Shown piece after piece: positions 213 through 39,966 of a stretch of 64,000 bases of DNA. Source of the stretch: Escherichia phage EcWhh-1; sequence record MH791409.1, one strand, 5' to 3'. The notes beneath the pieces are model-generated. The model ran no database searches. It was not told the DNA's origin and worked only from the letters and a program-made list of their open reading frames with translations. Made by a program: the position numbers and the translations under genes. Numbering within the stretch: position 1 is the stretch's first letter; every line of letters starts with the position of its first letter.

Positions 213-2033
213 TTATGACATCCAAGCCTTACGCAGCTGTGGGTCGTTTCCAAGGAGCATTTCGAACTGGTCTTTCCAATCTTCAGGTAATTGAACTACA
301 TCGAATTTAGGGTCTTGAATCATTCGACGGTATTCAGCCTTCTCAAGAGAACCGAGTCCTTTAATATAACGAATAGAATGCTTAGGTAGAGAGTCCTTAG
401 CTTTGGTATAACTAGGTACATCATAGAACCATTCCTGTTCTTTACCAACCTGAGCAATGATTACAGGAGTCTTACAGAAACGAATTCGTCCCTGTTCAAA
501 CAATTCCGGCCACTGACTAAAGAAAGCTAATAACGAAGGATAAATCGAACCAGTACCATCCACATCGGCGTCAGTCATGATAGCGATATTACGATAGTTG
601 GTTTTATCTGCAGGTTCACCAATAACCAGTCCAGTGATTGCACAGATATCAAACAATTCTTTGTTCTTCATGATATCGGCAGCAGTCATACCCCAGGTAT
701 TCATAACCTTTCCGCGTAACGGATAACCACCTTGGAGGTCTTTATTACGAACTTCAATGAAAGGACCCATTGCAGAATCACCTTCCGTAAGGAATAAAGT
801 CGTATCAGCATCTTTGCCATACATATTGGCTTTAATATGCTTATGGACCTTGGCTTTCAAAGCTTTCTTAGCAGCTTTTGTTTCGGCAGCCTTTTCAGCA
901 GCGAGCTTACGTGCTAATGCAGCCTCAATAATAGGCATCAACACAGCTTCATTAGCTAATATGGATTTAGCTAGTTTTTTAGAATCTAACTGAATATGCG
1001 AACGAATTTCACCATACGGCGATGTTAGACGTTCTTTAGTCTGGGAATCGAATCGCATATTTTTCATGCTTCGCACAAACATCAGCATCGTTAAACATTC
1101 TTTAATACGGGCTTTGGTTACTTCAATTTTAAACTTACGCTTAATTTGTGGGATAAGCTCGTCACAAATATCATCCATAACACATTCAACGTGGTGACCA
1201 CCGTTTTTAGTATGAATATTGTTCACGTACGTTAATTGTCGGAATCCATCAGGAGAGCGTCCTATAGATATCGAACAATTGTCCTGTTCTTGGATAATGC
1301 ACTCTTCGTCGAACTGTTTGGCGTATTTTTTAAACGACCCTTGGATTTTCTTACCATTAAATTTAAATTCAATATCAGGATAAATGACTGCTAAGGTTTG
1401 AAGTCGGTCAATGGTAATATCTTGATAAATTTTTTCAAATTGGTTCATTTCAAAGTGGCTAAAATCAGGTACAAATTCTACTTTGGTTCCATTAGTTTTA
1501 GATGGCTTTGATTTCCAAGAAACGTTTTCAGCGTTATTAGAGCAGTTAACAATAAGTTCAGATTTACCATCAGAAGTTGTGCCTGTAAACATCACAGAGA
1601 ATATATTTGTTAAACTGGAACCGACACCGTTTTGACCACCGGTAACACGTTCAGAGTCATCACCAAAGTTACCGCCTGCCTTGGTTTTTGTCCAAGCCGC
1701 GACGGGTCCTGGGATTTCTTCACCTTCAGGAGTAACCACTAGAGCTTGAGGAATACCACGGCCATTATCTTCTACAGTAACCTTATTAGAACTTAAATCA
1801 ATGCTTACTGAAATTTTGTTGGCAAACTTAAAATTAGTACGAATAGCTTCATCAACTGAGTTATCGATGATTTCATCAACTAATTTAAGAACACCCGCTA
1901 CATACCGTACTTTGGTAAACTCGCCGAAAAGAAATCGTTCATGGTCTTCAAATGATACACTTCCGATGTACATTCCAGGACGCTTAAGAACGTGTTCCTT
2001 ATCTGAAAGCATTTCAATTTTATTATCAATCAT
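213..2033 (-). CDS. 39: DNA topoisomerase II large subunit, uninterrupted gp39+gp60 type
   Basis: 606 aa. GHKL ATPase blocks (IIDNSVDEA, GQNGVGSS) and Toprim blocks (LTEGDSA, MTDADVDG). The C-terminal part, which T4 encodes as separate gp60, is in frame here. T4 synteny. Confidence 0.93.
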   Translation of the reverse strand: MIDNKIEMLSDKEHVLKRPGMYIGSVSFEDHERFLFGEFTKVRYVAGVLKLVDEIIDNSVDEAIRTNFKFANKISVSIDLSSNKVTVEDNGRGIPQALVVTPEGEEIPGPVAAWTKTKAGGNFGDDSERVTGGQNGVGSSLTNIFSVMFTGTTSDGKSELIVNCSNNAENVSWKSKPSKTNGTKVEFVPDFSHFEMNQFEKIYQDITIDRLQTLAVIYPDIEFKFNGKKIQGSFKKYAKQFDEECIIQEQDNCSISIGRSPDGFRQLTYVNNIHTKNGGHHVECVMDDICDELIPQIKRKFKIEVTKARIKECLTMLMFVRSMKNMRFDSQTKERLTSPYGEIRSHIQLDSKKLAKSILANEAVLMPIIEAALARKLAAEKAAETKAAKKALKAKVHKHIKANMYGKDADTTLFLTEGDSAMGPFIEVRNKDLQGGYPLRGKVMNTWGMTAADIMKNKELFDICAITGLVIGEPADKTNYRNIAIMTDADVDGTGSIYPSLLAFFSQWPELFEQGRIRFCKTPVIIAQVGKEQEWFYDVPSYTKAKDSLPKHSIRYIKGLGSLEKAEYRRMIQDPKFDVVQLPEDWKDQFEMLLGNDPQLRKAWMS

Positions 2034-2703
2034 TATGTTTTCTCTCGAATTGTTTTAAAATATTTTTATAGGACCCTTCAGGAAATCCACGTTTAATACT
2101 TTCTTTCATGAATTTAGCCAGTTTAGGTTTATCTAATTCTAACCATAAATCTTCTAAAGCGGATTCATATTCCCAAACAGGGCTTTTACGATTTTTAAGA
2201 CCGCATTTGATTAAGGCCTCGTCTGTATGTTTCTTACCAAAGAAAGGGTTGTTTTCTTTAGCCATTGCTTTGGAATGTTCAGGGCGTTTAATCCCATACA
2301 TAGGGTTAAGTTCACCTAATTTAAGGCCTGATTGGATTTTTATAGTTTCATGAGAATGATGTTTGTTAAAGAAAGGATTGTTTTCTTTACTAACGTCGGA
2401 GCCGAAAAATCCTTTAGGTGCTGCAGTTGCTCTATTAAAAAATAAATCAGATTTAGCCGCATTATTAAGGACTTGATACTTATACTCCGCTTTAGTAGCT
2501 TCTTCTCTTGTCTCGAATTCTTCAACTATCAAACTATCGAAAAGCTCAGGATGGGCAGCCAATTCAGACTTGTAAATCTCTTGGTACTTTTTAGATTTTA
2601 CGGAGCCGTGGTATCCGTTTAAATGTTTTTCTAGGCTAGTCGAACCTATATAAAATGGAGGTAATTTGTCTCCGGAATAAATCGTCAAGTAAACTATAAA
2701 CAT
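2026..2703 (-). CDS. GIY-YIG homing endonuclease (Seg-like, free-standing)
   Basis: 225 aa. N-terminal GIY-YIG (IVYLTIY...FYIGST). Repeated NNPFF(N/G)KKH and NPMYG NUMOD3-like repeats. Stop overlaps the gene 39 start by 8 nt. Confidence 0.8.
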   Translation of the reverse strand: MFIVYLTIYSGDKLPPFYIGSTSLEKHLNGYHGSVKSKKYQEIYKSELAAHPELFDSLIVEEFETREEATKAEYKYQVLNNAAKSDLFFNRATAAPKGFFGSDVSKENNPFFNKHHSHETIKIQSGLKLGELNPMYGIKRPEHSKAMAKENNPFFGKKHTDEALIKCGLKNRKSPVWEYESALEDLWLELDKPKLAKFMKESIKRGFPEGSYKNILKQFERKHND

Positions 2704-12598: not shown

Positions 12599-13120
12599 TT
12601 AATAACCTCGGTCTTGACGAGCAAAGTTCTCGGCATTTTTCAGGTAATACAGTTTAAAGATTTCTTCAGCGGTCAGTCCAAGACCCTGGAACATATTCAG
12701 AACAAAGTGCAGAATATCAATCATTTCGAATTTAATTTCGAGCTGGTCTTCAGGAGACAAATCGTTAATCAGGGTTTCACGACGTTCAGCATGTTGAGCT
12801 TTCCAAGGCTTCCATACTGCAGATGCATCTTTTTCACCATTGCTCATACCACCAAGAGAAGTCAGAAGTTCACGGAATTCGTCATCAATATAATCTTTCT
12901 GGTTGCGAAGCCAATCGACAACTTCACCCGCAGTGGCCAAATCATCAGGATGACGATTATATTCAGGCTTATCTTTAGCTAAACGAACCTGCAAAGATTT
13001 CTGCATATCAAGCATAACCTGCAGAGGGTCTTTATCTTCGTGAATCAGAGCATTAAAATAAGCTTCTTCAGCTTTATCGGCACCGGCAATCAGTTGAGAA
13101 CATTCATTAAAATGAGCCAT
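12599..13120 (-). CDS. 56: dCTPase-dUTPase (dCTP pyrophosphatase)
   Basis: Start at ATG 13120 (MAHFNE, AAGGAAA SD). Strongly similar to T4 gp56 (PLQVMLDMQ, IDDEFRELLTSLG, EIFKLYYLKNAENFARQDRGY). Confidence 0.93.
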   Translation of the reverse strand: MAHFNECSQLIAGADKAEEAYFNALIHEDKDPLQVMLDMQKSLQVRLAKDKPEYNRHPDDLATAGEVVDWLRNQKDYIDDEFRELLTSLGGMSNGEKDASAVWKPWKAQHAERRETLINDLSPEDQLEIKFEMIDILHFVLNMFQGLGLTAEEIFKLYYLKNAENFARQDRGY

Positions 13121-13161
13121 TATATTTTTCCTTATCAATTCATTTGTTAGTAAGTTAGATA

Positions 13162-16856: not shown

Positions 16857-16881
16857 AACAAAAAAGGAGCCGAAGCTCCTT
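16857..16881 (-). terminator. rho-independent terminator after gene 41
   Basis: AAGGAGC-UUCG-GCUCCUU plus a U-run. The stem includes the TAA stop. Confidence 0.7.
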
Positions 16882-18310
16882 AAAATTTGATAGATGCTGC
16901 TAAATCGTCTAAATCACTTCTATTAACACGCGACTGGCGATTGACCTCTGCTTGGCGGTTCATTTCACCTGTAGCCTCACGAACAGTGTTCACTGGACCT
17001 GGGTTAAAATCGTCTTCAACTTCATACCAACGCTGGTTTCCTTTCTTAACACCAATCTTAAATTTGTTGTAGTAGCTCTTATCACCATAACGAGATTTAA
17101 GCTGCTTAACCATCTGCATACCCATCTGAGCAAACTCTTCTGTCTCGACCACACCTAACATGAAGTCTGCAGTATGTGCAATACCAAAGGATTCAGCGAT
17201 ATCAGCCATATCGATTTCGGCGGCAACGTTCGCACCACGAGTAGTCTGGGCTGCAGTCCACAACAATAATTTCTTCTCTACTGCAAGTCCACGTAGTTCT
17301 TCGGCAACCATCTTAATCAATCCATAACTGTTTTCAGAGAAAACTTTCGTACGGGATGAAGCACAGATAGCCAAGTAGTCGACGATAACGACCTGTGGGA
17401 CAAAGTTTTGTTTGAGCTTGTATTCGTTTAATAATGCACGGAATGTATCGGCATTAGCACCACCAGTAGGGTACTGTTTAATCTTTAAACGACCTAAAGT
17501 AGCAGTTGAACGCCACTTATCCATCTTAGCTTTATATTCAGGCCATGAGACGTGACCATCATCGATATCATCCAGTGATACATCCAGAAGGTTAGCATCG
17601 ATACGCTTAGCACATACTTCCTCTGCCATCTCCATAGAGATATAAAGAACATCATAACCGGATTGAAGGTAATCAGCAGCCAATGAACACAGTCCAAGAG
17701 ACTTACCTACGTTTGTTCCTGCCAACAATACGTTTTCAGTACCAAACTCTGCTCCACCCTTAGTAATCTTGTTCAGAATATTAAGACGGAATGGAACCTT
17801 ACGTGCTTTATCGGAATAACTTTTGAATCGTTCTTCATAGTCATCCATCCAGTCATGACCTAATTCGGAATCGAAACAAATCGATAATGCATCACGCATG
17901 ATATCTGGAATAGCACCAATACCTGGAAGTTTTCTATTTTGTTGCTCAACCGGAAGGTCGGCATTAGTTTGGATTTCAATGATTTTTGAAGTTGCATTAT
18001 ACATCGCTGCTTTCTGAACGTATTTCTCCGTTTCTTTAACCAACCATTCTTGGTCTTCGGGTCCAGCATTCAGTGAGCTTAAAAGCTCTTTAGCTCCTTG
18101 ATGTTCAACTTCTGAAAGCGTACTGTTATCTAATGCAATGCTCAATGCGTTCTTAGAAGGCACTGCATTATATTCATTGACGTGTTTTTTAATTTCTTTG
18201 AAAAGGGTCTTTGCAGGACCCTGGTCAAAATATGAATCATTCATATAAGGCCAGACCTTAGTGAAATAATCACTATTGCCTAGCAGTTGAGCCAAAATAG
18301 TTTCTACCAC
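16880..18310 (-). CDS. 41: replicative DnaB-like helicase
   Basis: Colinear with T4 gp41 (GVNVGKS-type Walker A: GTNVGKSLGLCSLAADY). There is no ATG. GTG 18310 gives MVETIL, aligning with T4 MVEIIL, with a GAGGTGG SD. The track start is GTG 18319. Confidence 0.93.
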   Translation of the reverse strand: MVETILAQLLGNSDYFTKVWPYMNDSYFDQGPAKTLFKEIKKHVNEYNAVPSKNALSIALDNSTLSEVEHQGAKELLSSLNAGPEDQEWLVKETEKYVQKAAMYNATSKIIEIQTNADLPVEQQNRKLPGIGAIPDIMRDALSICFDSELGHDWMDDYEERFKSYSDKARKVPFRLNILNKITKGGAEFGTENVLLAGTNVGKSLGLCSLAADYLQSGYDVLYISMEMAEEVCAKRIDANLLDVSLDDIDDGHVSWPEYKAKMDKWRSTATLGRLKIKQYPTGGANADTFRALLNEYKLKQNFVPQVVIVDYLAICASSRTKVFSENSYGLIKMVAEELRGLAVEKKLLLWTAAQTTRGANVAAEIDMADIAESFGIAHTADFMLGVVETEEFAQMGMQMVKQLKSRYGDKSYYNKFKIGVKKGNQRWYEVEDDFNPGPVNTVREATGEMNRQAEVNRQSRVNRSDLDDLAASIKF

Positions 18311-18633
18311 TTCCACCACCTCTTAGATTTAATTTTATCCAGTTCTTCTTGTATTTGCATTGTAACACATTTTTCTACATGAAGCGCTAGCTCTTCTTTT
18401 CGGTCTTCGGAAGGTGTTCCGAAATCAACCGACACTTTTCCATCTTTCTCAATAACAATATTCATCACATAAACGATGTGAGCAGTGCCATCGGGTAAAG
18501 TAAGCATAATTTCCTGCTTAACAGAACCCATTGACTTACGGATTATATCTAATGATTTCTCATAATAACGAGGGTCACTAGGACCCTCTTCGGTATCTTT
18601 AACAAAATTATCTAAATCAGATAAATCAGTCAT
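18304..18633 (-). CDS. 40: gp40-position protein (head vertex assembly chaperone slot), 109 aa
   Basis: Lies between uvsX and 41 as in T4. Overlaps both neighbours. Confidence 0.5.
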   Translation of the reverse strand: MTDLSDLDNFVKDTEEGPSDPRYYEKSLDIIRKSMGSVKQEIMLTLPDGTAHIVYVMNIVIEKDGKVSVDFGTPSEDRKEELALHVEKCVTMQIQEELDKIKSKRWWKW

Positions 18634-19807
18634 GGTCGCTCACAAAATTCATGTTTTCTAAATCGCTTTCGATGTCAGCAGCGCTTTGGGTATTTCCACC
18701 TAATTTAACAGAAACGTTCTTAGAGACACGAGAGTTAATAAGGTCGTTCACTGCATCGTCAACTTCTTTAATAGAATTAATTGCACCGAGCTTATACTTA
18801 TTCTCGATTGCTTCACGGAACGGAGCATGTTTAAACAGTGGTCCCCAGAACTCAACACAATCGGTAGCTTTAGCACGCCATGCTTTTTCTTCTTGAACCA
18901 TTTCACCTGTGGTTTCGTCAAGGAATGCACGATTATACCACCCAGCTTTAGGTTTCACGACAAAGCCGATATCAGTAGCCATTTCAAGCAATCCACTGAA
19001 TGGGTCGATACCGCCTTCAAAGTTAACGGTGATAGGGAACGTTGACTTCTCTTTAACCGTACGAGATTTCTCAGCCTTAAGTGTGAAGTCATAACCAGTG
19101 AGCTCAGTACCATCTTTAACCTGGCGTTTAGAGATAAAGAACACGGTAGAAGCAGAGTACAGAATACCAGTACCACCACCCATAATCTCTTTAGGATACA
19201 TTCCACCAATTTCCATAGCCGTGTGGTTAATTGCTACACAAGGGATATCCTTGATGGTCAGATAAGGTGTTACGATACGGAACAGAGATTTCAGTGACTT
19301 AGCACGAGTCATATCACCTACAACTTTCTCGTTCAAAGCATCTTCGGTTTCTTTCTTAGAAGCAGTGTTACCAATGGAGTCGATAAAGATAATAACCTTT
19401 TCGCCACGAGTAATTTCTTCTAACTGGTTGGTCATATCAACTTTAAGCTGTTCGACTGACTGGATTGGTGTATGAACCACACGTTCCAAATCAACACCCA
19501 TCGAACGGAAATAAGATTCTGAAGCACCGAACTCAGAGTCATAGAACAAGCAAATTGCGTCTGGATATTTCTTCATATATGCCGCAACCATAGTTAATCC
19601 AAACAACGTTTTAAAGTGTTTAGACGGTGCAGCAAAGATTGTCAAACCTGATTGTAAGCCTGCATTCAACGCACCACCCAATGCAATATTAAGCATAGGA
19701 ATACGAGTAGGAACTTCGTCACGACCATTAAACAATTTAGATTTGGTCAGGTCGGCAGTCATTTTAGAAGTAGAAGCTTTAATCAAACGGGATTTTAAAT
19801 CAGACAT
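18626..19807 (-). CDS. uvsX: UvsX RecA-like recombinase
   Basis: 393 aa. Walker A region AAPSKHFKT. T4 UvsX-like throughout. Synteny. Confidence 0.93.
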   Translation of the reverse strand: MSDLKSRLIKASTSKMTADLTKSKLFNGRDEVPTRIPMLNIALGGALNAGLQSGLTIFAAPSKHFKTLFGLTMVAAYMKKYPDAICLFYDSEFGASESYFRSMGVDLERVVHTPIQSVEQLKVDMTNQLEEITRGEKVIIFIDSIGNTASKKETEDALNEKVVGDMTRAKSLKSLFRIVTPYLTIKDIPCVAINHTAMEIGGMYPKEIMGGGTGILYSASTVFFISKRQVKDGTELTGYDFTLKAEKSRTVKEKSTFPITVNFEGGIDPFSGLLEMATDIGFVVKPKAGWYNRAFLDETTGEMVQEEKAWRAKATDCVEFWGPLFKHAPFREAIENKYKLGAINSIKEVDDAVNDLINSRVSKNVSVKLGGNTQSAADIESDLENMNFVSDHD

Positions 19808-19859: not shown

Positions 19860-19887
19860 ATTATATCACTTCACAGCTACAGCATTA
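19860..19887 (-). promoter_or_regulatory. MotA-type middle promoter for uvsX
   Basis: taATGCTGTA (19887-19878), 12 nt, TATAAT (19865-19860). Confidence 0.5.
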
Positions 19888-20016
19888 CTTAATTCCTCGG
19901 TTGATAGCCTTATCGACTATCTTCCGAACTTCTCGTTTCTCGAGCCACACTAATAATAGCAAGCCTCCGAAAGAGAATAATAACAAACCTATAAAAAGCA
20001 ATAGAGGACCTAGCAT
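19885..20016 (-). CDS. single-pass membrane micro-protein, 43 aa
   Basis: Below cutoff. GAGGA SD. ATG 20016 overlaps the upstream stop by 7 nt. MLGPLLLFIGLLLFSFGGLLLLVWLEKREV... Confidence 0.45.
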   Translation of the reverse strand: MLGPLLLFIGLLLFSFGGLLLLVWLEKREVRKIVDKAINRGIK

Positions 20017-20903
20017 ACTACGTCCTCATAACGTGGCATTTCGTATTCAGAATGAATATTGGCACCGAAATAAATGAATTCAGCCAGACCAGGATGGAAT
20101 ACTAAACCTGGGTTCTCATGATAAATGATATGTGGTCTTGATTTCAGAATTTGATAATATTCAACCTTACTCGGTTTGAATTTAATAATCTCTACATCAG
20201 GACGATAGTCTTCGCGCTTAAATGAATCATTAGGGTCGGTGATATAAAGACGAGCACCTTCAGCGGCAGCTTGGTCTACAACTCTTTCGAATTGATAACA
20301 CTTATCCGAAATACGGAATGGATGGAAAATACCATCAATTTTAATAGGCGCTAGACCTTCAGAGTAACGCTCAATTACTGCAGGATTAATTACCTTTTGG
20401 TCTACAAAAATCTTATCAGAGGATGCACCTCGTGACATCAGGACGTCTTTCTGGCATTGATTCAAGACTGTAGTATAAAGTGAACGTTCAACTGAAGCCA
20501 CATCAATATCAATGAACTCGTCGATATAATAACGAGGAACTTCAGGGTCCATTGTGATATTAAAGTTGAATTGTACAGTATGAGCACCATCATAACCGGT
20601 GATATCGGTCACCAGTCCTGAGCAATCATAGTATTCGATTAGTGAATCGACTACAAACTCATTTTCAGACCAGAAATGTTTACGGGTTTCATAAGCATTT
20701 TCTTTATACCAAAGTGGTACGAAATTCAGTTCTGGGAATAATTCAATGCATTCTTTGATATCGCTCGAATTTCTAGGATAAGCCAGATAATCACCTGGAC
20801 GAGCACGATTTAAATGGAGTTGAAAATTACCGTCCTTAAGGACGGCATATTCACCTGTTTCGTAACTACGCATACTGAAAATAGGAACGATAAACAAACT
20901 CAT
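20010..20903 (-). CDS. orphan 297-aa protein in the beta-glucosyltransferase slot; candidate hmC glycosyltransferase
   Basis: ATGA-coupled to gene 42. Not alignable by eye to T4 beta-gt, except for a loose GT-B-like block IFHPFRISDKCYQFERVV versus T4 GGSFRSGQRESKMVEF. Confidence 0.35.
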   Translation of the reverse strand: MSLFIVPIFSMRSYETGEYAVLKDGNFQLHLNRARPGDYLAYPRNSSDIKECIELFPELNFVPLWYKENAYETRKHFWSENEFVVDSLIEYYDCSGLVTDITGYDGAHTVQFNFNITMDPEVPRYYIDEFIDIDVASVERSLYTTVLNQCQKDVLMSRGASSDKIFVDQKVINPAVIERYSEGLAPIKIDGIFHPFRISDKCYQFERVVDQAAAEGARLYITDPNDSFKREDYRPDVEIIKFKPSKVEYYQILKSRPHIIYHENPGLVFHPGLAEFIYFGANIHSEYEMPRYEDVVC

Positions 20904-21598
20904 TTCAGGAAACCTCGGACGTAGTCAAAATCACGTTCAAACACGTGTGCACTTACCATGGTGTGGGAATATGTACCTAAACCGACACCACACTGTTCAG
21001 CAATAAATGCCATCAGTTTACCCTGCAGATAGAAATCCAGCTGCATAACAACGGCGCAGTTTTGTGAACGCATATGAGTGTGTGCATACAGACGTCCATC
21101 ACGAATATAATATGTTACCGAATCGGTACACGGATATTCTAGGGATTCGTCAGAATCAAGGAGGGCTTGGTCTTGTTCTTGGAGAATTTGGAACACAACT
21201 CGTCTCGAGTTAGGCTTTTCTTTAAGCTCTTTAAGTAGGGCTGGGAGTTGGGCCACAATTCGAGGGCCATAGAAAGTGTTGAAGTTTGCAGGCAATACGT
21301 CACTTTTCGGCTTATCAATGAACTTAGCAACATTAGGGTATTCCTTAAATGCTTCGGCAGCGTCAGTACCACCAGAAATCATAAATTTCCAAAAGGATTC
21401 GGCATATTCATAACTAATACGATTGATACGTGGGTCGGTGAATTTATAGGTGCTTGCATCCAGTACTTCTACCGAAGCAGAACCAATTTCATAACAACGT
21501 CCGATACGAGAATCAACTGCAAACTGTGGAGCTTCCAGGATTTCTTCGTTCATTTGTTTAAATGCATTTTCAAAACTAACAGCGGTAATGTGTTTCAT
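20900..21598 (-). CDS. 42: thymidylate-synthase-family deoxypyrimidylate hydroxymethylase (divergent gp42)
   Basis: 232 aa. Conserved blocks: KPNSRR, YPCTDSVTYYIRDGRL, HMRSQN, SAHVF. Lies at the T4 gene 42 position, but is much more diverged from T4 gp42 than its neighbours are from their T4 counterparts. Confidence 0.7.
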   Translation of the reverse strand: MKHITAVSFENAFKQMNEEILEAPQFAVDSRIGRCYEIGSASVEVLDASTYKFTDPRINRISYEYAESFWKFMISGGTDAAEAFKEYPNVAKFIDKPKSDVLPANFNTFYGPRIVAQLPALLKELKEKPNSRRVVFQILQEQDQALLDSDESLEYPCTDSVTYYIRDGRLYAHTHMRSQNCAVVMQLDFYLQGKLMAFIAEQCGVGLGTYSHTMVSAHVFERDFDYVRGFLK

Positions 21599-22131
21599 TT
21601 ATTCACCTTATTTTCAATATATTCGTTCAGACGTTTTAATTCTACCATATCAACATTAAGCAAATTATTATGGCCGTCATGATTTAAGATTTTAAACACG
21701 TTTTCAAAACATGTTTCGTATTGCCGGATAGTTAGGTTGAACTCATCTTTGGTTAATTTAATAAGGTCGTCTTCGAAGTCTTCGTCTAATGGATTGCGAG
21801 TTAAAATAACCTCGATAACGTTAAATTCGGATTTAAACCCTTTCCAATCTTCCAGTTCTACATAAGGGTCCATTTCACCACGAAGGAATCCTGAGTAAAC
21901 AATATTACTTGGATAACCACGGTCAAGGATATAAACGAAATTAGGGTCTAAAAACTTATACAGAGTTTCAACTAAAGCCTTATCGTTATCAGTTCCTAAT
22001 GAAATACACTTGCCATTAATCTTTTTAGGAAAATCAATAAGGCGGTATTTCTTATTGGATAACAGATTTTTAATTAAAGTGGACTTCCCGGAATTATCCG
22101 GGCCGTCTATAACAATGATTTTTGGATTCAT
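21595..22131 (-). CDS. P-loop (thymidylate/dNMP kinase-like) kinase
   Basis: 178 aa. Walker A VIDGPDNSGKST, DRG motif. ATGA overlaps at both ends. Confidence 0.55.
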   Translation of the reverse strand: MNPKIIVIDGPDNSGKSTLIKNLLSNKKYRLIDFPKKINGKCISLGTDNDKALVETLYKFLDPNFVYILDRGYPSNIVYSGFLRGEMDPYVELEDWKGFKSEFNVIEVILTRNPLDEDFEDDLIKLTKDEFNLTIRQYETCFENVFKILNHDGHNNLLNVDMVELKRLNEYIENKVNK

Positions 22132-22511
22132 GGATGATAGGCCTTATAACTATCAAGAGTTCCTTCACGAACCATTTCTTTAAAGTGGTCAGGACGGATT
22201 GCTCGGTCATCGATGATAAAAGTATAACTCGGCTTATGCGTAAGCAGATTATGATATTTCAATCCAATCTTTTCAAGGTTCTTAACCAATGCAGGAACTA
22301 CTTCAACCAAGATTCGACCTGGGCCACATGAAGTCATGCCACGGGCAGTGAATAATGTAATCTCGTACCCTTCATCATAAAGCTTATTAATCATGGACAC
22401 CATTTCGGTGTCCGGTTTAAAGTTCTCATAATCACGGTCATGGTTCCAAATCGTGATTGTGTTATCGATATCAAAACATAAATGTGGCTTATTTTCTACT
22501 CGATGCGACAT
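22128..22511 (-). CDS. HAD-superfamily phosphatase
   Basis: Motif I FDIDNTIT, motif II LFTAR, motif III KPSYTFIIDDR. ATG 22511 is TAATG-coupled (alternative start ATG 22526). Confidence 0.6.
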   Translation of the reverse strand: MSHRVENKPHLCFDIDNTITIWNHDRDYENFKPDTEMVSMINKLYDEGYEITLFTARGMTSCGPGRILVEVVPALVKNLEKIGLKYHNLLTHKPSYTFIIDDRAIRPDHFKEMVREGTLDSYKAYHP

Positions 22512-24184
22512 TAAATTTTCTTCCATTGTTTGTGGAGTTCAGTAGAACCTGTAGGTTTATATTTTACACCAGTTTCCTGGTCAAGCAAAACCCACTTATC
22601 AGGACAACGAGTAATAATTTGAGCCGTGATAGGGTCACGAACTTCATCGACAAATTCACCAGTAATAAGCTTACGCTTATGAGGATGCCGCTTCAGCAGC
22701 ACACTCAGTTGATACAAACCGTTATAATAAGCACCCAGAGCTTTCAGAGGGTTATTCTTAAAGTAACCTGCCAGCGCCATCCAAATAACAGCAATCCAGA
22801 GCTTGTGCTTAAATGTGCACATAGGAATATCGTCTAAAGGCATAACCTTTTCGATATCAACGAATACACGAGTTCCGTTACGAGTTAATCCACCCCATAG
22901 AGGGTCTGAGTTAAATTTGTCATAGCCATCGATAGAATAAAGCACCTTAGCTTCATCATAAATCGCAGGGCCTTTAGAACTATTACCGAAATAACCACGT
23001 GGGTCGATGATTTTAATATCACCTTCGTCCGACAGCATAATATTACTGTAGTGCGGGTCGCCATGAATAAGTTGGTACGGTTCTTTATGTTCAGACAGAA
23101 TTTCTAGTGCATGGCGGAGAAGTTTTTCGGGGTCGCCTACTTTGAAATCGTTAACATAGGTAATGCCCTGTGGAGCAAAGCCTTCAATCAATCCGGCAAT
23201 AGAAGCATTACGAATAAGGACCTTGTCCAACACTTCTTTCTTAACATCGGAATACCATTGCTCATCGGACGGGTTATCGATAGTTCCACCGAATGAACGT
23301 AATGCACTAATGACCTTATAAACCATGAGGACTTTAGTTTCTTTGGACATAAACCGGTAGGCATCTGCCATGGTACGACCAAAGATACGTTCCATTTTAA
23401 TGAATTCGCCTGGAGAAAAGTCTACAATGCTAGGAACGAATTCAGAATCAATAGAATTATACCAATTGATTTCTTTAGATTGAATTTCTTTACCTAATTC
23501 GTTAGTTGGTACTTTAATAGCCAGATTCTCGGTGAACTCTAATTTATTAAATTCACGGTTAATTTCAGAATCTTCATGGGCCTTGGCAAGTTTCAATTTG
23601 TCACCGACATCAACTACAAAATCCAGTTTACGTTCAGTCAAATAGACCATTGAATCCAGGTTATCAGCAAGGTCTTCGCCATAATTAGAACGGTCGAAAC
23701 CTGTCCAATTGGCTACCTGATACAAACCAACTACACCGCCACCGGTACCAATTTCACGTAAGTACGGTTCTTCAAATGTAAAGCGACAGTCAGTTCCATA
23801 GGTATAACAATAGTCGTTACCCCATTCAACTTTATGACCGATAGGAATGATGTCACACCAGTTAAACAGGACATTATGGCCAATGATATCTTCGGCAATG
23901 CAATCGATAGCATGAGCTGAACCATTAGCAACATCAACGTTACGAATAGTGAATTTAGGCTTATCACCAGTAATCATGTTAATGGATTTAATATAGCCTT
24001 TAACGAGGTCGTTAAATTTGCTGTGAATAACCAGAATAATTTCATCTGATTGGTTACTATACAAATCATACAAATGTTTTAATACCGTATGTTGTTTGTA
24101 GTTAACCAATACCTTTGGGATTTCGTTAGTAATTGGATACAACCGTGAGCCAAGACCTGCGCCTAAAATAACAACCTTTTTCAT
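22511..24184 (-). CDS. bifunctional sugar-1-phosphate nucleotidyltransferase / APH-choline-kinase-like kinase
   Basis: Start at ATG 24184 (GAGGAA SD). N-terminal VILGAGLGSRLYPIT...PKVLV (GxGxRL NTase). C-terminal LIHGDPHYSNIM...IIDPRG (Brenner HGDxxxxN plus Dxx). Confidence 0.65.
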   Translation of the reverse strand: MKKVVILGAGLGSRLYPITNEIPKVLVNYKQHTVLKHLYDLYSNQSDEIILVIHSKFNDLVKGYIKSINMITGDKPKFTIRNVDVANGSAHAIDCIAEDIIGHNVLFNWCDIIPIGHKVEWGNDYCYTYGTDCRFTFEEPYLREIGTGGGVVGLYQVANWTGFDRSNYGEDLADNLDSMVYLTERKLDFVVDVGDKLKLAKAHEDSEINREFNKLEFTENLAIKVPTNELGKEIQSKEINWYNSIDSEFVPSIVDFSPGEFIKMERIFGRTMADAYRFMSKETKVLMVYKVISALRSFGGTIDNPSDEQWYSDVKKEVLDKVLIRNASIAGLIEGFAPQGITYVNDFKVGDPEKLLRHALEILSEHKEPYQLIHGDPHYSNIMLSDEGDIKIIDPRGYFGNSSKGPAIYDEAKVLYSIDGYDKFNSDPLWGGLTRNGTRVFVDIEKVMPLDDIPMCTFKHKLWIAVIWMALAGYFKNNPLKALGAYYNGLYQLSVLLKRHPHKRKLITGEFVDEVRDPITAQIITRCPDKWVLLDQETGVKYKPTGSTELHKQWKKI

Positions 24185-24244
24185 TATCTGTTCCTCAAGT
24201 GAATGTAGGTACATTATACACTATTTTTAATAAATTTCTATTGC

Positions 24245-24745
24245 TTAAATCTTATCTTTACCGTATTCCATGCACTGTTCTACTGCAGCAGGCACTTTGG
24301 TCTTAAGCTTGTTGATTTGTTTCTTATAATCACGAGCCTTATCGAAGCTCTCGGTTTCGAGCATTTCGTAATAACGAGCCTCGTGGACAGAAATCTGTAG
24401 ATTGATATGGTTTACACACATGGCATACAGTTTCTGCTTTTTGTACAAATCATCTTGGCGCTTCATTTCTGCCTGGTGTTTGGCTAGTACCGCTTCACGC
24501 TTAGACTCTTGTTCACGTTGGAATTCGATTTCCCTTTGAGCATATTTTGCACAGTTATTACCACATTGATTATTAGCTCGGGTGTACACAAGTCCAGAAC
24601 CGGCACGGAATTTCATTTCGCCGTCGAATTGTTTCTGTTCAGCTGCGATACGAGCTTTACCAACTTCATCAGCAGAAACTGCATCACCGTATTGGACTGC
24701 GCAACCTGATAGGAGCATACTCATTGCGATAATTAACTTTTTCAT
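24245..24745 (-). CDS. predicted lipoprotein, 166 aa
   Basis: MKKLIIAMSMLLSG|C lipobox. Coiled-coil-like, charged mature part. Confidence 0.6.
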   Translation of the reverse strand: MKKLIIAMSMLLSGCAVQYGDAVSADEVGKARIAAEQKQFDGEMKFRAGSGLVYTRANNQCGNNCAKYAQREIEFQREQESKREAVLAKHQAEMKRQDDLYKKQKLYAMCVNHINLQISVHEARYYEMLETESFDKARDYKKQINKLKTKVPAAVEQCMEYGKDKI

Positions 24746-24752
24746 AATATCC

Positions 24753-24890
24753 TCAATTAAAACAGTTATACTTAATTTGTGCTATAAGAATAATCCATCC
24801 CATGATTAATGTTGGAATCATTGGAGGAATTGCCACTGCCCAATAAACGGTAAAGGCAGCCATTATAAGAAATAAAATAATTATCTTCAT
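24753..24890 (-). CDS. membrane micro-protein, 45 aa
   Basis: Below cutoff. ATGA overlap with the imm stop. MKIIILFLIMAAFTVYWAVAIPPMIPTLIMGWIILIAQ... Confidence 0.45.
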   Translation of the reverse strand: MKIIILFLIMAAFTVYWAVAIPPMIPTLIMGWIILIAQIKYNCFN

Positions 24891-25123
24891 TGTTTAACGA
24901 TAATGATTTGTGCGTTTGATTTATGTTCAGCGACTATAGCCCAGATTAAAGCCACTACCCAACCAATCATCGTCCACCCTAACAGGAGATTAAGGAAGAA
25001 GATTCCGACATTGCTACGAGTGCCTCGCAGAAGGGCCAGAATCCATGGTAAAAAGTAACCAATGAACATAATAACCAGAGAACCGAATCCTAAAACACCA
25101 GCACTAACGATTAAAGCTTCCAT
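24887..25123 (-). CDS. imm: superinfection immunity protein Imm-like
   Basis: Start at ATG 25123 (GAGGAAAT SD). Two TM segments. LNLLLGWTMIGWVVALIWAI matches the Imm_superinfect signature. Lies at the T4 imm position. Confidence 0.7.
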   Translation of the reverse strand: MEALIVSAGVLGFGSLVIMFIGYFLPWILALLRGTRSNVGIFFLNLLLGWTMIGWVVALIWAIVAEHKSNAQIIIVKQ

Positions 25124-25154
25124 TGTAATTTCCTCTAAGTAGTTGATAGGAAGG

Positions 25155-25184
25155 ATACTACCACGTTCCTTGTGGTATGTAAAC
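25155..25184 (-). promoter_or_regulatory. early-type promoter
   Basis: GTTTAC (25184-25179), 18 nt, TAGTAT (25160-25155). Lies right after the gene 43 stop. Confidence 0.5.
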
Positions 25185-25186
25185 AC

Positions 25187-27898
25187 TTAAAAGTCGAACA
25201 TATCAAATAATGTTGCTTTTTTCTCGTAGTCGATTTTAGCAGACTCGGTAAAACCAGTTAGAGGCTTGATAAAGGTCTTTTGGAACAGTACGTTGTAGTC
25301 CATCCAACGGAGGACTTGGTCACGAATCTGAACTGGGAGTTCAATACCTGACGGCCATGCCATACAGGCTTCACCAAACGGGTTGCCTTCTTTAAGTGGC
25401 AGTACATATACCTTTTCACCGTCAACGATACGAGGCATAGTCAAATCACCAGCAGAAGCACGCATGTAAGCTAAGCAACCTTTGATGTGGTACGGGCATT
25501 TAGAACCAGGGAATCCGCCTTCATTATATTTCTCGATGTTGTTAGCACTGGATACTGCTGCAATGCTTACATAGTCCAGTTCGTTAAATTCCTTATTAAA
25601 CTGTTTGAAATATTCTTGCAAAGACGCCTCGCCTTCTTGAAGCATACGACGGATACATTCTTTCAGAGCTTTCTGAACAGCTTTAGGTGTACTTGATTTC
25701 TGAGTTTCGAGACCCATGATTTTCAAGTGTGGTTCGGCATAACGAGTGCCTTCCATGTCCCAAACGTTCAGTGCATAACGTTTCTTGCCTGTCCAGAATC
25801 CACCAAGACCTTTAGAACCAAGTGGAGGACCTGCGATAGCTTCTCGGTCCATGAACATCAAGTGTTGTTTGTTGTTCATGTATTCGCACATCTCACGGAA
25901 GCCTGCATCAATAGTCGGTTCCATACGTTCACGTGCAAATTTATCTAAGAAGTCGACCCAGTGGTTAGTGTCACGGAATTTATCTTCGCCTACTTTATTG
26001 ATGATTGCATCTGCCTTAACATAAATGGAGTCAGTATCACCATAGAGCACGAACTTCTGGTTTTCAGTCTTACACACGCTATTCAGATATTCGTTAACCT
26101 TACGTTCAATCCATTGGAGAGCCATTTGACCAAACAGTGTGATTGCAGTTGCGTTCCTGAGGTCGTAATAACGAAACCATACGTTACCAAGTGCACCATA
26201 AAGGGAGTTGATAAGCAACTTACGGTTAATCTGAGCAGTGTTACCTGCAACTTCGGTACGTTCAGCTCTGAACAACATTTCTTTTAAAGAAGAGGCCGAC
26301 AGTTTTTTAATCTGGGCTTTTATTTCATCAGAGAAGTCGAAACGGTAATCGATATCCAGTGGACTATCAACAGACAGATTAGGATTTTCCAATGCTTCTT
26401 TAATTAACTCGCCATTACGTTGGGCTGCAAGCATATAACCTTTATGTTCTTTACGTTGTAAGAACACCTTCGTGATTTCTGTAGGAATCACACCATCACG
26501 GTCTTTATAGTACATCATGCCGTTAGGAGAGCAACTGTAGGTGTCGCTAGGACGCGGAGCAGTTCCGGCAATATATTCATGTATCGGTGCGTTGGCGAAT
26601 GTGCCTGCGATGGTCTCTGGGCTTATATTCACTTGTCGAATGATACTCGGGTACAGAGATGTAAGGTCGAAACTCATTACATATTTGTACGCGTTAGGAA
26701 TAGGTTCCTTAACGAAAGCACCTGGATAAGGTTGAACCGCATGCGATTTGGCCTGAGGAATAACTTTACCCTGTTCTTTAAGGCTATTAAAGATAATAGC
26801 GTCCCAAGTCTTAATTGGACTGAACACCGACTGAATCTGCATCTTAGCATAATAACCCATGTCCAGACTAAGAAGAATGAACTGGCGTTTCATATCAATC
26901 TGCACAACACGATATACGTCGATAATGTTATAGGAAATATATCGTTGGTGGTTCGTCTCACGTAACTTGGAGATAGGACCATCATATTTCAACTTACCTA
27001 CTTTCAATTCATATTCAGAAACATAATCCAGAGAATAAGAAGGCTGGTTAGTAAAGCTGAATTTTTTATAAAGGTCGATATAATCCAGAACAGAGATACC
27101 GAACAGTGTAATAATTTCGCGAACACCGTACATATTCTCGATAACTTTAACACGAGTCTTACGATGTGGGCTTAATCGCTTAGCAGTGTTCTCACCAAAC
27201 AGATTTTTCAGACGGTTATAAACGTATGGCACGTCAAATGATTCAACGTTCCATCCAGTCAAAATCACAGGAGTTTTCTGTTGCCAGAAATTCAGATACT
27301 CAAGCATCATTTCTTCTTCAGAATTAAACGGAAGATAAACGATTTTGTCAATGATTTCTTGTGGAACTTCGTCACCACCTTCGTCTTGGAGTTTCTCAGC
27401 GATTTTAATCGACCACTCTTCGACCGTACCATAAGGTGAAACTAAAAGGTCAAATACATAGAATTTATCATCAATCGAGTCGTAGTGAGTAATGGCATCG
27501 ATAGGATGTTTAGCCTGGGCAGGTTCAGGGAATCCATCAGGGGATGTTACCTCGATGTCGAAGTTAGCAATACGAATCTTGGAAGAATCATACTTGATTT
27601 CTTTACGATAGGTATCAGACAAATAGGCTAATTTATAGTCGTCCATACCAAGGGCTTCGAGACCCATATCGTCCATGCGCTTCATCCACTGAGAAGCATC
27701 GCGCATTGAATCGAATTCTTTCTTAACACAACCCTTACCGTAGATGTCAATATATTTTACGGCTTGCTCTGGGTTAGCGTGCATAAACATTGTAGGCTTG
27801 TAAGGAACTTCACGACTACGTTCGTTACCATTTTTATCGATGTAACGTTCGAGAATATTATCACCGATTTGTTCGACTGTCAAATAGAATTCTTGCAT
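25187..27898 (-). CDS. 43: DNA polymerase (family B)
   Basis: Start at ATG 27898 (MQEFYLTVEQIGD, AAGGAA SD). Very close to RB69/T4 gp43 as recalled (FDIEV exo I, SLYPSII, YGDTDS). Confidence 0.97.
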   Translation of the reverse strand: MQEFYLTVEQIGDNILERYIDKNGNERSREVPYKPTMFMHANPEQAVKYIDIYGKGCVKKEFDSMRDASQWMKRMDDMGLEALGMDDYKLAYLSDTYRKEIKYDSSKIRIANFDIEVTSPDGFPEPAQAKHPIDAITHYDSIDDKFYVFDLLVSPYGTVEEWSIKIAEKLQDEGGDEVPQEIIDKIVYLPFNSEEEMMLEYLNFWQQKTPVILTGWNVESFDVPYVYNRLKNLFGENTAKRLSPHRKTRVKVIENMYGVREIITLFGISVLDYIDLYKKFSFTNQPSYSLDYVSEYELKVGKLKYDGPISKLRETNHQRYISYNIIDVYRVVQIDMKRQFILLSLDMGYYAKMQIQSVFSPIKTWDAIIFNSLKEQGKVIPQAKSHAVQPYPGAFVKEPIPNAYKYVMSFDLTSLYPSIIRQVNISPETIAGTFANAPIHEYIAGTAPRPSDTYSCSPNGMMYYKDRDGVIPTEITKVFLQRKEHKGYMLAAQRNGELIKEALENPNLSVDSPLDIDYRFDFSDEIKAQIKKLSASSLKEMLFRAERTEVAGNTAQINRKLLINSLYGALGNVWFRYYDLRNATAITLFGQMALQWIERKVNEYLNSVCKTENQKFVLYGDTDSIYVKADAIINKVGEDKFRDTNHWVDFLDKFARERMEPTIDAGFREMCEYMNNKQHLMFMDREAIAGPPLGSKGLGGFWTGKKRYALNVWDMEGTRYAEPHLKIMGLETQKSSTPKAVQKALKECIRRMLQEGEASLQEYFKQFNKEFNELDYVSIAAVSSANNIEKYNEGGFPGSKCPYHIKGCLAYMRASAGDLTMPRIVDGEKVYVLPLKEGNPFGEACMAWPSGIELPVQIRDQVLRWMDYNVLFQKTFIKPLTGFTESAKIDYEKKATLFDMFDF

Positions 27899-27956
27899 TT
27901 CATTTCCTTTATAGACGAGTGATTGTCTTTTGTTTGTTGATGAATCATTATACTCC

Positions 27957-27978
27957 AAAAAGGGACTTCGGTCCCTTT
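27957..27978 (-). other. 8-bp hairpin upstream of gene 43
   Basis: AAAGGGAC-CGAA-GUCCCUUU then UUGGAG-TATAAT (27952-27947). May be a weak terminator, a leader hairpin or a promoter context. Confidence 0.4.
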
Positions 27979-38882: not shown

Positions 38883-39159
38883 AGGAAATAACTCCTTGGT
38901 AGTCCCAAGTTTTGATAACTTCTTCGTCATTAGTGTTGTACGGAACGTAAACCTGTACAAGAAAACCTGTGTCATCGAAAGAGAAATAAACGGTTGGTTT
39001 GATTCCGTGAATCTCTGATAGAGCATAGATATCTTTAAGGTCTTCTTCCTTATCTTTAAAGAATTCGGGGTTCAGGTCACAGTCATGGAAGTACCAATCA
39101 TCACCGAACTTGTCCCATGCGGTCCAATTGGTAGCTACATATTCTTCAAAACGTTTCAT
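38863..39159 (-). CDS. hypothetical protein, 98 aa
   Basis: Coding-strand ORF with an ATGA overlap onto the upstream gene. Confidence 0.5.
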   Translation of the reverse strand: MKRFEEYVATNWTAWDKFGDDWYFHDCDLNPEFFKDKEEDLKDIYALSEIHGIKPTVYFSFDDTGFLVQVYVPYNTNDEEVIKTWDYQGVISCGPKVN

Positions 39160-39371
39160 TCTTTCACCTTCATCATTTTAGAAATAACACCATGAACAGA
39201 CTGGATTCGTTTTTCGAACTCAGACCCTTCAAGACCTTTTTCAGTACTCAGGGCACCGATAATAACAAACAGTAATCCAAACGGGATGACCAGGATTAAA
39301 AGGCACACGATAAACAAGGCAAATGTAATATTGGCCAGGATATCGGAAACAGCATTACGAAATTTGTTCAT
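39156..39371 (-). CDS. membrane protein, 71 aa
   Basis: ATG 39371 is TAATG-coupled. TM segment ITFALFIVCLLILVIPFGLLFVIIGAL. Confidence 0.5.
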   Translation of the reverse strand: MNKFRNAVSDILANITFALFIVCLLILVIPFGLLFVIIGALSTEKGLEGSEFEKRIQSVHGVISKMMKVKE

Positions 39372-39496
39372 TAAAGAACCCACATGTTAGTTACAACAAA
39401 TAACCATTGAGCAGGATACTCAACACCCATAATACGCACCGCATCGTTCAGAGATTCGGCTAAAGCATAAAATGTGTAGCCATAAAAATTAATCAT
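39371..39496 (-). CDS. hypothetical micro-protein, 41 aa
   Basis: Below cutoff. ATGA overlap with the gene 49 stop and TAATG coupling with the next start. Confidence 0.4.
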   Translation of the reverse strand: MINFYGYTFYALAESLNDAVRIMGVEYPAQWLFVVTNMWVL

Positions 39497-39966
39497 TTAA
39501 GCGATTTCCTCAGTTGTTTTTTAAACGAATCGACCATTTGTTTCTTAGTGGCAGATTCATTATAAGTCATTCCATGTGAAAGCATTTCAGCAATCATTTC
39601 TTCCTTACCCAACCTGCTGAACTCTTTGGTTTTATCAGGAACGAAATTAGGATGAATATTATTTTCAGTATAATCAGCTTTCAGATAGACCAGCAAATTC
39701 TCTAACCATTCGAGGTAGTCAACGTTTTGACCTTTAAGACCAGAACGGTTGAACTTATGCTTCATTTGTCCTTCTGCAGCATTGCACAGGTTACATAGTA
39801 AACCACGAACCTTACCGGCTTTTGGCCCGTTTAACTCGTGGTCGTGGTCAAGGTGGTTACTTTGAACATCAGGGTTTAATTCACGTTTACAAATCAAACA
39901 CTTACCACATTGTGCATCATAAAGTTTTTGTTTTTCTTCTTTGTATAATTTGCCGGTCAACAACAT
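39493..39966 (-). CDS. 49: endonuclease VII (Holliday junction resolvase)
   Basis: 157 aa. MLLTGKLYKEEKQK...HLDHDHELNGPKAGKVRGLLCNLCNAAEG is near-identical to T4 gp49. Confidence 0.96.
   Translation of the reverse strand: MLLTGKLYKEEKQKLYDAQCGKCLICKRELNPDVQSNHLDHDHELNGPKAGKVRGLLCNLCNAAEGQMKHKFNRSGLKGQNVDYLEWLENLLVYLKADYTENNIHPNFVPDKTKEFSRLGKEEMIAEMLSHGMTYNESATKKQMVDSFKKQLRKSLK

Follow-up and report, generated by a model that had tools for sequence, protein, structure and literature searches.

A predicted 5-hydroxy-dCMP synthase within a five-gene DNA modification operon of Escherichia phage EcWhh-1

A stretch of 64,000 nucleotides from Escherichia phage EcWhh-1 (sequence record MH791409.1), referred to below as the window, carries at 20900-21598 a gene for a member of the thymidylate synthase (TS) superfamily. 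The product of this gene is very probably a 5-hydroxy-deoxycytidine monophosphate (5hodCMP) synthase, an enzyme putting a hydroxyl and not a hydroxymethyl group on deoxycytidine monophosphate (dCMP). Judged by its sequence, it is a hydroxylase rather than a fast-evolving version of gp42, the enzyme encoded at the corresponding place in phage T4: all the sequence-testable defining features of a 5hodCMP synthase are present, while those tested for T4 gp42 and for thymidylate synthase were not found. The evidence presented here comprises homology, signature residues, clade membership, operon structure and gene content, whereas hydroxylation itself and its dependence on flavin and O2 are taken from the literature on homologues. 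Between 19800 and 25200 the DNA is 99.5% identical to that of Escherichia phage UP19 and 98-99% identical to that of IME281, JS98 and JS10, all belonging to Dhakavirus, the JS98-like T4 relatives within the Straboviridae.

Work published in 2025-2026 has already described the enzyme family, with its structure and diagnostic residue, and reported its occurrence in Dhakaviruses. The DNA of RB69 and of the Acinetobacter phage DLP3 contains arabinosylated 5-hydroxycytosine (5hoC), in which the sugar is ether-linked directly to C5 (Lee et al., NAR 2026, PMC13326640), and the earlier assignment of an arabinosyl-hydroxymethylcytosine (hmC) to RB69 was erroneous (PMC13390438). The TS homologues RB69 gp48 and DLP3 gp80 convert dCMP to 5-hydroxy-dCMP; with RB69 gp48, 18O2 labelling traced the oxygen to O2 and flavin mononucleotide co-purified, such that the family reaction is a flavin- and O2-dependent hydroxylation in which no carbon is transferred (PMC13326640). 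This flavin/O2-dependent formation of 5hodCMP has been shown only for RB69 gp48, DLP3 gp80 and the enzyme of phage HY126 (PMC13326640), the flavin-bound structure of the HY126 homologue having been solved by He et al. (Nat Chem Biol 2026), as cited in PMC13326640. In vivo, 5-hydroxydeoxycytidine (5hodC) is made by RB69 gp48, DLP3 gp80, a Thanatos enzyme and several others carrying Asn at the position of Asp169 of E. coli ThyA (D169N), that is, by all the D169N enzymes tested (PMC13326640). The same authors name the Dhakaviruses among the genera with a syntenic cluster (Lee et al., PMC13326640). A first-pass annotation of the window had cautioned that the product of the gene should not be assumed. 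This caution is borne out, and the options then offered (dCMP or dUMP as substrate, a hydroxymethyl or another one-carbon group as product) miss the chemistry of the family.

The closest links of the window protein are with these hydroxylases. When every open reading frame (ORF) of the window was compared by tblastn with the initial 50 kb of each of T4 and RB69, it proved 80% identical over its full length to RB69 gp48 (ORF048c), alongside values of 84% for gp43, 90% for UvsX and 89% for gp56. No T4-type gp42 was found in the RB69 stretch compared, where the counterpart is gp48, so that the first-pass assumption of a conventional gp42 in RB69 does not hold. With T4 gp42, which at 246 residues is indeed longer, identity is 25% over 159 residues, less than for any other of the 32 window ORFs that align to T4 over at least 100 residues; for the neighbours the corresponding values are 65% (gp41), 67% (UvsX), 61% (gp43), 67% (gp44), 59% (gp45), 78% (gp55) and 87% (gp49). 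The earlier claim that the gene is far more diverged than its replication neighbours is therefore correct with respect to T4 but not with respect to RB69, and its companion claim, that this is not an ordinary T-even gp42, is upheld by the low identity on alignment. Elsewhere, the protein is 71% identical to the enzyme of an Acinetobacter Lazarusvirus and 70% identical to that of Thanatos.

A sequence search of the PDB gave a similar picture. The best matches by far were 9iqu, 9iqc and 9ir2 (234-238 residues; E=2e-126; about 80% identity to 9iqc and 9iqu), followed by the CMP hydroxymethylase MilA (56 bits, E=3e-14), by many thymidylate synthases (29-42 bits, E=1e-10 to 1e-5) and by T4 gp42 (1b49; 28.6 bits, E=1e-5). 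Since these last scores are comparable, the window protein lies at least as far from T4 gp42 as from true thymidylate synthases. The sequence of the 9iqc group is almost that of RB69 gp48, and for this reason, and because the neighbouring deposition 9iqw matches a phosphatase encoded beside our gene (see below), these entries presumably correspond to the HY126 enzyme that He et al. solved with bound flavin; a literature text search on the codes 9IQC, 9IQU and 9IR2 returned unrelated papers only.

The residues of the active site point in the same direction. The window protein was aligned with RB69 gp48, the Lazarusvirus, Thanatos and PTm1 enzymes, that of Rhizobium phage IG49, T4 gp42 and E. 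coli ThyA, the last (confirmed to be identical in sequence to PDB 1aob) providing the numbering. The column of the nucleophilic C157 is invariant in all eight sequences. N180, in the motif MRSQN, aligns with D169 in QRSCD, an Asp kept in T4 gp42, ThyA and phage td, while D188 occupies the position of N177, the residue involved in the choice between uracil and cytosine (as cited in PMC13326640). At positions L143, C146, D169 and N177 the window protein thus reads E-C-N-D and T4 gp42 D-C-D-D, ThyA and phage td having Asp at 169 and Asn at 177. D169N, together with N177D and L143E, is described as diagnostic of 5hodCMP synthases (Lee et al., PMC13326640). In mechanistic terms C157 would attack C6 of the pyrimidine and D188 would make the enzyme bind dCMP and not dUMP, whereas, with the folate-binding aspartate lost at N180, a loosely bound flavin and O2 would place the hydroxyl on C5. 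All four motifs reported at first pass (NSRR, PCTDSV, HMRSQN and SAHVF) were found in the ORF; the Pfam family Thymidylat_synt (PF00303) covers only its C-terminal half (residues 114-229, E=4e-14).

To explore the distribution of the signature, 1.84 billion cluster representatives were searched exhaustively with HMMER, yielding 2565 relatives, the best 150 of which (50%-identity clusters) were examined. Among these 150, E-C-N-D is found in nearly all of ranks 1-69 and the T4 gp42-like D-C-D-D, carried by 38 aligned sequences, from rank 70 down only. In a neighbour-joining tree of 137 sequences (100 bootstraps), the six 5hoC-type references, including RB69 gp48, Thanatos, Lazarusvirus, PTm1 and IG49, form one clade without T4 gp42 and td in 89/100 replicates, and 100/100 unite the window protein with its Straboviridae relatives, so that in this phylogeny it is separate from T4 gp42.

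Two further observations concern this family at large. Among close relatives, a minority (for example P0016, P0022, P0053, P0055 and P0056) are variants at the D169 position, namely E-C-S-D in nine, E-C-C-D in four and E-C-H-D in three, which could represent further chemistries within the superfamily. In addition, the metagenomic E-C-N-D members P0004, P0006, P0007 and P0010 have a histidine phosphatase domain (His_Phos_1) fused at the C-terminus, and in Tenacibaculum phage PTm1 (locus L006, 3289-4657) a stand-alone histidine phosphatase gene lies directly upstream of the TS homologue. The fusion suggests a tie between base hydroxylase and a (sugar-)phosphate phosphatase, and that the HAD phosphatase found in the window has been swapped for an unrelated one in some lineages.

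Table 1. Coordinates in the window of the predicted hydroxylase gene, its motifs and diagnostic codons, its operon partners and other features discussed in the text
Feature	Coordinates	Strand	Remarks
TS-superfamily ORF	20900..21598	-	232 residues, ATG start; predicted 5hodCMP synthase (dCMP C5-hydroxylase)
NSRR	21200..21211	-	residues 130-133
E154-Y-P-C157 codons	21128..21139	-	C157 = ThyA C146, catalytic nucleophile; E154 = L143E
PCTDSV	21116..21133	-	residues 156-161
HMRSQN	21059..21076	-	residues 175-180
R177-S178-Q179-N180 codons	21059..21070	-	N180 at ThyA D169 position (D169N)
D188 codon	21035..21037	-	ThyA N177 position (N177D), cytosine-over-uracil determinant
SAHVF	20939..20953	-	residues 216-220
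Glycosyltransferase candidate	20010..20903	-	297 residues; homologue of RB69 gp46:47 ('arabinosyltransferase 1')
P-loop thymidylate-kinase-like 'nucleotide kinase'	21595..22131	-	178 residues; homologue of RB69 gp45
HAD-family sugar-phosphate phosphatase	22128..22526	-	132 residues (127 if started at the TAATG overlap); counterpart of RB69 gp51 / HY126 AfhF
Bifunctional enzyme	22511..24184	-	N-terminal sugar-1-phosphate nucleotidyltransferase, C-terminal APH-type sugar kinase; counterpart of RB69 gp52:53 / HY126 AfhE
Sigma-70-like promoter match	24213..24240	-	TAGAAA-16-TATAAT, 10/12
gp41 gene	16880..18319	-	
UvsX gene	18626..19807	-	
Small hydrophobic ORF	19885..20016	-	43 residues
Predicted lipoprotein gene	24245..24745	-	166 residues
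Small hydrophobic ORF	24753..24890	-	45 residues
imm	24887..25186	-	
gp43 gene	25187..27958	-	
gp56 dCTPase/dUTPase homologue	12599..13138	-	66% to T4 gp56; supplies dCMP, removes dCTP
gp39 topoisomerase gene	213..2033		unsplit
Homing-endonuclease-like ORF	2026..2703	-	225 residues
gp55.8-like ORF to gp49	39156..39966	-	UP19 L051-L053

The organisation of the locus (Table 1) suggests the purpose to which the hydroxylated base is put. On the minus strand the order is T4-like, with genes for gp41, a gp40-like protein and UvsX followed by a five-gene block and then by the genes for a lipoprotein, Imm and gp43. The five genes encode successively the bifunctional nucleotidyltransferase/kinase, the HAD phosphatase, the P-loop kinase, the hydroxylase and the glycosyltransferase candidate; they overlap end to end at ATGA/TAATG junctions and are translationally coupled. 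In T4 the corresponding slot holds only segA, beta-gt and 42, so that a five-gene operon replaces the beta-gt/42 pair. The four partners, to which the divergence was extended at first pass, are not diverged T4 genes, having no homologue at all in the first 50 kb of T4 by tblastn.

The start of the glycosyltransferase candidate overlaps the hydroxylase stop, and the two genes adjoin in nearly all related loci. It is 67-69% identical to the RB69-type protein and matches phrog_3891 (E=1e-158) but has no sequence match in Pfam or the PDB, and the glycosyltransferase function of RB69 gp46:47 was itself assigned by structure prediction (PMC13326640). The P-loop kinase, with 38% identity to RB69 gp45, matches phrog_761 (E=1.5e-39) and, weakly, P-loop families of Pfam. 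The HAD phosphatase (61% identical to RB69 gp51; PDB 9iqw, E=5e-54) also resembles the capsule-biosynthesis phosphatases of TIGR01689 at E=1e-14, under the cut-off of that model, and its counterpart AfhF turns arabinose-1,5-bisphosphate into arabinose-1-phosphate (He et al., as described in PMC13326640). The bifunctional enzyme is recognised by PF00483 (E=3e-8), PF01636 (E=1e-5) and phrog_4098 (E=1e-267, aligned from residue 11). Its open frame reaches 24214, but translation probably starts at M11, at 24184, giving 557 residues, because a GAGG Shine-Dalgarno sequence lies 7 nt upstream and residues 11-13 are where the alignments to Pfam and PHROG start. The start at 24214 overlaps the TATAAT box of the promoter match, and annotations based on the longer ORF would include 10 residues too many. 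This match is the best of the region and lies directly upstream of the block; the region as a whole is no richer in sigma-70-like sites than shuffled sequence. Relative to RB69, conservation of the four partners is uneven, falling from 67-69% in the glycosyltransferase and 61% in the HAD phosphatase to 42% in the bifunctional enzyme and 38% in the kinase.

Comparison of 44 IMG/VR loci (extending no more than 8 kb to each side of the TS homologue) and reference phages revealed the same association of a TS homologue with glycosyltransferase and NDP-sugar genes in most of the 44 loci, and two versions of the module. In the RB69/Acinetobacter version an arabinose-5-phosphate isomerase is present and the P-loop kinase gene lies beside uvsX, whereas in that of the window no isomerase occurs in the fetched loci and the kinase gene lies between the HAD and TS genes. 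The latter version is common to Dhakaviruses, three Klebsiella-phage-type contigs (L012, L013 and L045), whose TS gene is 86-87% identical to that of the window, the level seen in Klebsiella phages, and one 162-kb contig, probably from a Proteus phage. The bifunctional enzymes of the window clade (the window, L012, L013, L045 and L024) are 71-79% identical to each other and 42-46% to all others, and those of RB69 type, Thanatos and Acinetobacter are 47-58% identical to one another. The module and its flanks tell different histories: against an RB69-type locus (L018) the window shows 84% identity in gp43 but 42% in the bifunctional enzyme, 38% in the kinase, 61% in the HAD phosphatase and 80% in the hydroxylase, and against a Klebsiella-phage-type locus (L013) 68% in gp43 but 79%, 85%, 84% and 87%, respectively. 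This incongruence supports a cassette-like exchange, as read from sequence comparison, involving the sugar half of the module if not more of it. The proposal that the module was acquired or evolves as a unit accordingly finds backing in the overlapping operon and in its distinct history, but not in composition; a recent horizontal acquisition, judged on that basis, was rejected, GC content being flat at 0.38-0.40 across the module, the same as in the rest of the window.

The gene content allows a pathway to be proposed. The dCMP made by the gp56 dCTPase would be converted by the hydroxylase to 5hodCMP, which the phage deoxynucleoside monophosphate (dNMP) kinase, a gp1 homologue, together with host NDP kinase would raise to 5hodCTP for incorporation by the gp43 polymerase in place of C. 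The bifunctional kinase/uridylyltransferase and the HAD phosphatase would then make an NDP-pentose, by homology UDP-D-arabinofuranose from arabinose-5-phosphate, and the 297-residue glycosyltransferase would join this sugar to the 5-OH by an ether bond, yielding DNA that could resist restriction and Cas nucleases. Of the arabinosyl-5hoC (Afh-type) system, homologues of the hydroxylase, the first arabinosyltransferase and the AfhF- and AfhE-like enzymes are all present. We think it reasonably likely, with less assurance than for the hydroxylase itself, that the end product is mono-arabinosylated 5-hydroxycytosine; both the identity of the sugar in Dhakavirus and the figure of one sugar per base are what we infer. 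Because there is one glycosyltransferase, a mono-glycosylated 5-hydroxycytosine is predicted, and Thanatos offers a parallel in combining a single glycosyltransferase with DNA reported to be mono-arabinosylated (PMC13326640).

Searches for further components covered the window and the 108 kb of UP19 outside it. Neither a gene like RB69 gp50, nor a second arabinosyltransferase (of RB69p003 or Lazarusvirus type), nor, by tblastn, T4 alpha-gt or beta-gt was found. A genuine td (47% identical to E. coli ThyA) lies beside frd, and dCMP deaminase, gp1 dNMP kinase (its gene being in UP19), DenB, Ndd and an Alc-like protein are also present. Together with gp56, encoded in the window, these make up a full T-even-style apparatus excluding unmodified C, which fits a complete replacement of C.

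Several points weigh against the reading of the module as an arabinosyl-5hoC system built around a dCMP hydroxylase. For Dhakavirus, JS98 and IME08 the literature on DNA chemistry holds genomic inference only, no measurement on enzyme or virion DNA having been found, and the activity assigned to the window protein is extrapolated from homologues 70-80% identical to it. The D169N rule is empirical, and family variants with Ser, Cys or His at this position exist; the PDB records of the 9iqc group are named just 'Thymidylate synthase'. The sugar part is less secure, as the bifunctional enzyme is only 42% identical to its RB69 counterpart and falls in a separate clade, and neither the window nor the other 108 kb of UP19 gave a match at E<=0.01 to the arabinose-5-phosphate isomerase (RB69 gp55 / DLP3 gp83). 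This enzyme is missing likewise from all the Dhakavirus and Klebsiella-phage-type loci fetched.

Such considerations are the ground for an alternative in which the gene still encodes a hydroxylase, but in which the Dhakavirus-type module uses some sugar different from D-arabinofuranose or reaches D-arabinofuranose along another route. We consider this unlikely, as we do the corresponding proposal that the isomerase-less, single-glycosyltransferase module common to Dhakavirus and to Klebsiella- and Proteus-phage-like contigs serves to make 5-hydroxycytosine with a sugar other than arabinofuranose. The distinct clade of the bifunctional enzyme, the low identity and different position of the P-loop kinase, and the lack of the isomerase in every fetched locus of the clade (the whole-genome check, on the window and UP19, concerning one Dhakavirus only) would favour a different sugar, as would the fact that in the fetched loci the isomerase accompanies the RB69/Acinetobacter-type bifunctional enzyme with the sole exception of Thanatos. 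On the other side, the glycosyltransferase and HAD phosphatase are well conserved with those of the arabinose systems. Moreover, since no isomerase lies within 7 kb of the cluster of Thanatos, reported to be mono-arabinosylated, a phage isomerase is not strictly defining for an arabinosyl-5hoC system. E. coli itself makes arabinose-5-phosphate, by means of KdsD and GutQ, for the synthesis of 3-deoxy-D-manno-octulosonic acid (KDO), so that, if the sugar is arabinose, its precursor would come from host isomerases. Were the sugar indeed a different one, these coliphages, a common group employed in therapy, would carry a novel glycosyl-5hoC base.

That the gene is instead a conventional but rapidly evolving gp42, a folate-dependent dCMP hydroxymethylase making 5-hydroxymethyl-dCMP, appears highly improbable. 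It occupies the slot of T4 gene 42, beside a glycosyltransferase gene and between uvsX and imm/43; like T4 gp42 it combines the cytosine-specific Asp with an acidic residue at the L143 position; and 'dCMP hydroxymethylase' is the label in several phage records, a reading met in many database entries and in older reviews, a JS98 gene 42 allele being listed by Petrov et al. 2010. Yet it matches T4 gp42 no better than it does true thymidylate synthases, has Asn where T4 gp42 keeps the equivalent of Asp169, and belongs to another clade, while enzymes 80% identical to it yield 5hodC and not 5-hydroxymethyldeoxycytidine (5hmdC), the hmC linkage in RB69 having since been corrected. Weaker still, to the point of being negligible, is the case for a thymidylate synthase or SPO1-type dUMP hydroxymethylase acting on uracil nucleotides, which has in its favour the TS family matches in Pfam and PHROG and the RefSeq product name 'thymidylate synthase', but against it the Asp in place of the uracil-selecting Asn, NCBIfam thymidylate synthase equivalog scores far under the cut-offs (63 bits against 174.55 for the best model; 18.6-43.8 against 108-427 for the others) and the genuine td already in the genome. 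The SPO1-type dUMP hydroxymethylase was rejected on the N177D substrate determinant alone.

Some other features of the window deserve mention. Between the modification operon and imm lies the gene of a predicted lipoprotein (signal peptide with LSGC lipobox; phrog_1754), weak homologues of which (28-46%) are encoded between the isomerase gene and gene 43 in a number of related phages; it could serve as a further factor of superinfection exclusion. Two small hydrophobic ORFs flank the module, the 45-residue one being 53% identical to RB69 ORF054c, which the RB69 annotators linked to the T4 42-imm intercistronic region. Far from the module, a homing-endonuclease-like ORF (phrog_10820 'HNH endonuclease', E=1e-46; 28% identical to T4 segA) adjoins the gp39 gene, in the slot held by RB69p003 in RB69, JS98 having been listed without homing endonucleases in 2010 (Petrov et al. 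2010). Finally, gp49 comes immediately after a gp55.8-like ORF, at the place of nrdG-(mobC)-nrdD in T4 and RB69, and no tblastn match to nrdD or nrdG, for anaerobic ribonucleotide reductase, was found in the window and the rest of UP19.

The hydroxylase gene decides the composition of the phage DNA, and a 5-O-glycosylated cytosine is chemically unlike the glucosyl-hydroxymethylcytosine of T4. The modified base alters the set of restriction, CRISPR and type IV (modification-dependent) defences that the phage evades or sets off, the behaviour of its DNA when sequenced or cloned, and the ways in which the phage can be engineered. The Dhakaviruses are frequent candidates for phage therapy against E. 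coli, and since the gene is still given as 'thymidylate synthase', 'dCMP hydroxymethylase' or 'hypothetical' in most database records, a correct annotation is of practical value.

Among known systems, the nearest are the RB69 gp48, DLP3 gp80 and HY126 enzymes, with which the window protein shares 80% identity over the full length, the E-C-N-D signature, the size class of 232-238 residues and the uvsX-gene 43 slot. In the RB69-type cluster, too, the neighbouring genes encode a glycosyltransferase, a P-loop kinase, a HAD phosphatase and a bifunctional kinase/nucleotidyltransferase, but the window module places the kinase gene differently, lacks the isomerase, the U32-peptidase-like gene (RB69 gp50) and the second arabinosyltransferase (RB69p003), and diverges most in its bifunctional enzyme and kinase. 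With T4 gp42 (1b49) the common ground is the TS fold, the catalytic Cys, the Asp at the N177 position associated with a dCMP substrate, the acidic residue at L143 and the slot beside a DNA glycosyltransferase gene, as well as the strategy of modifying the base as a mononucleotide and glycosylating it later. The two differ in the low identity, in Asn for Asp169 and in their branches of the superfamily, and the family of the window protein uses flavin and O2, not methylene-tetrahydrofolate, to add OH and not CH2OH (PMC13326640). MilA (PDB 5jnh/5b6d), which has Asp at the L143 and N177 positions (Lee et al., PMC13326640), is the top-scoring characterised relative outside the 5hoC group, aligning over nearly its full length and likewise specific for cytosine, yet it acts on a ribonucleotide, transfers a hydroxymethyl group, is about 100 residues longer and belongs to an antibiotic pathway. 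E. coli ThyA and phage td, lastly, share with the window protein the superfamily fold, the phosphate-binding Arg pair R132/R133, R177, S178, H218 and the catalytic Cys, but identity to ThyA is 18% and the window protein is set apart from it by N177D, D169N, L143E and some 40 fewer C-terminal residues.

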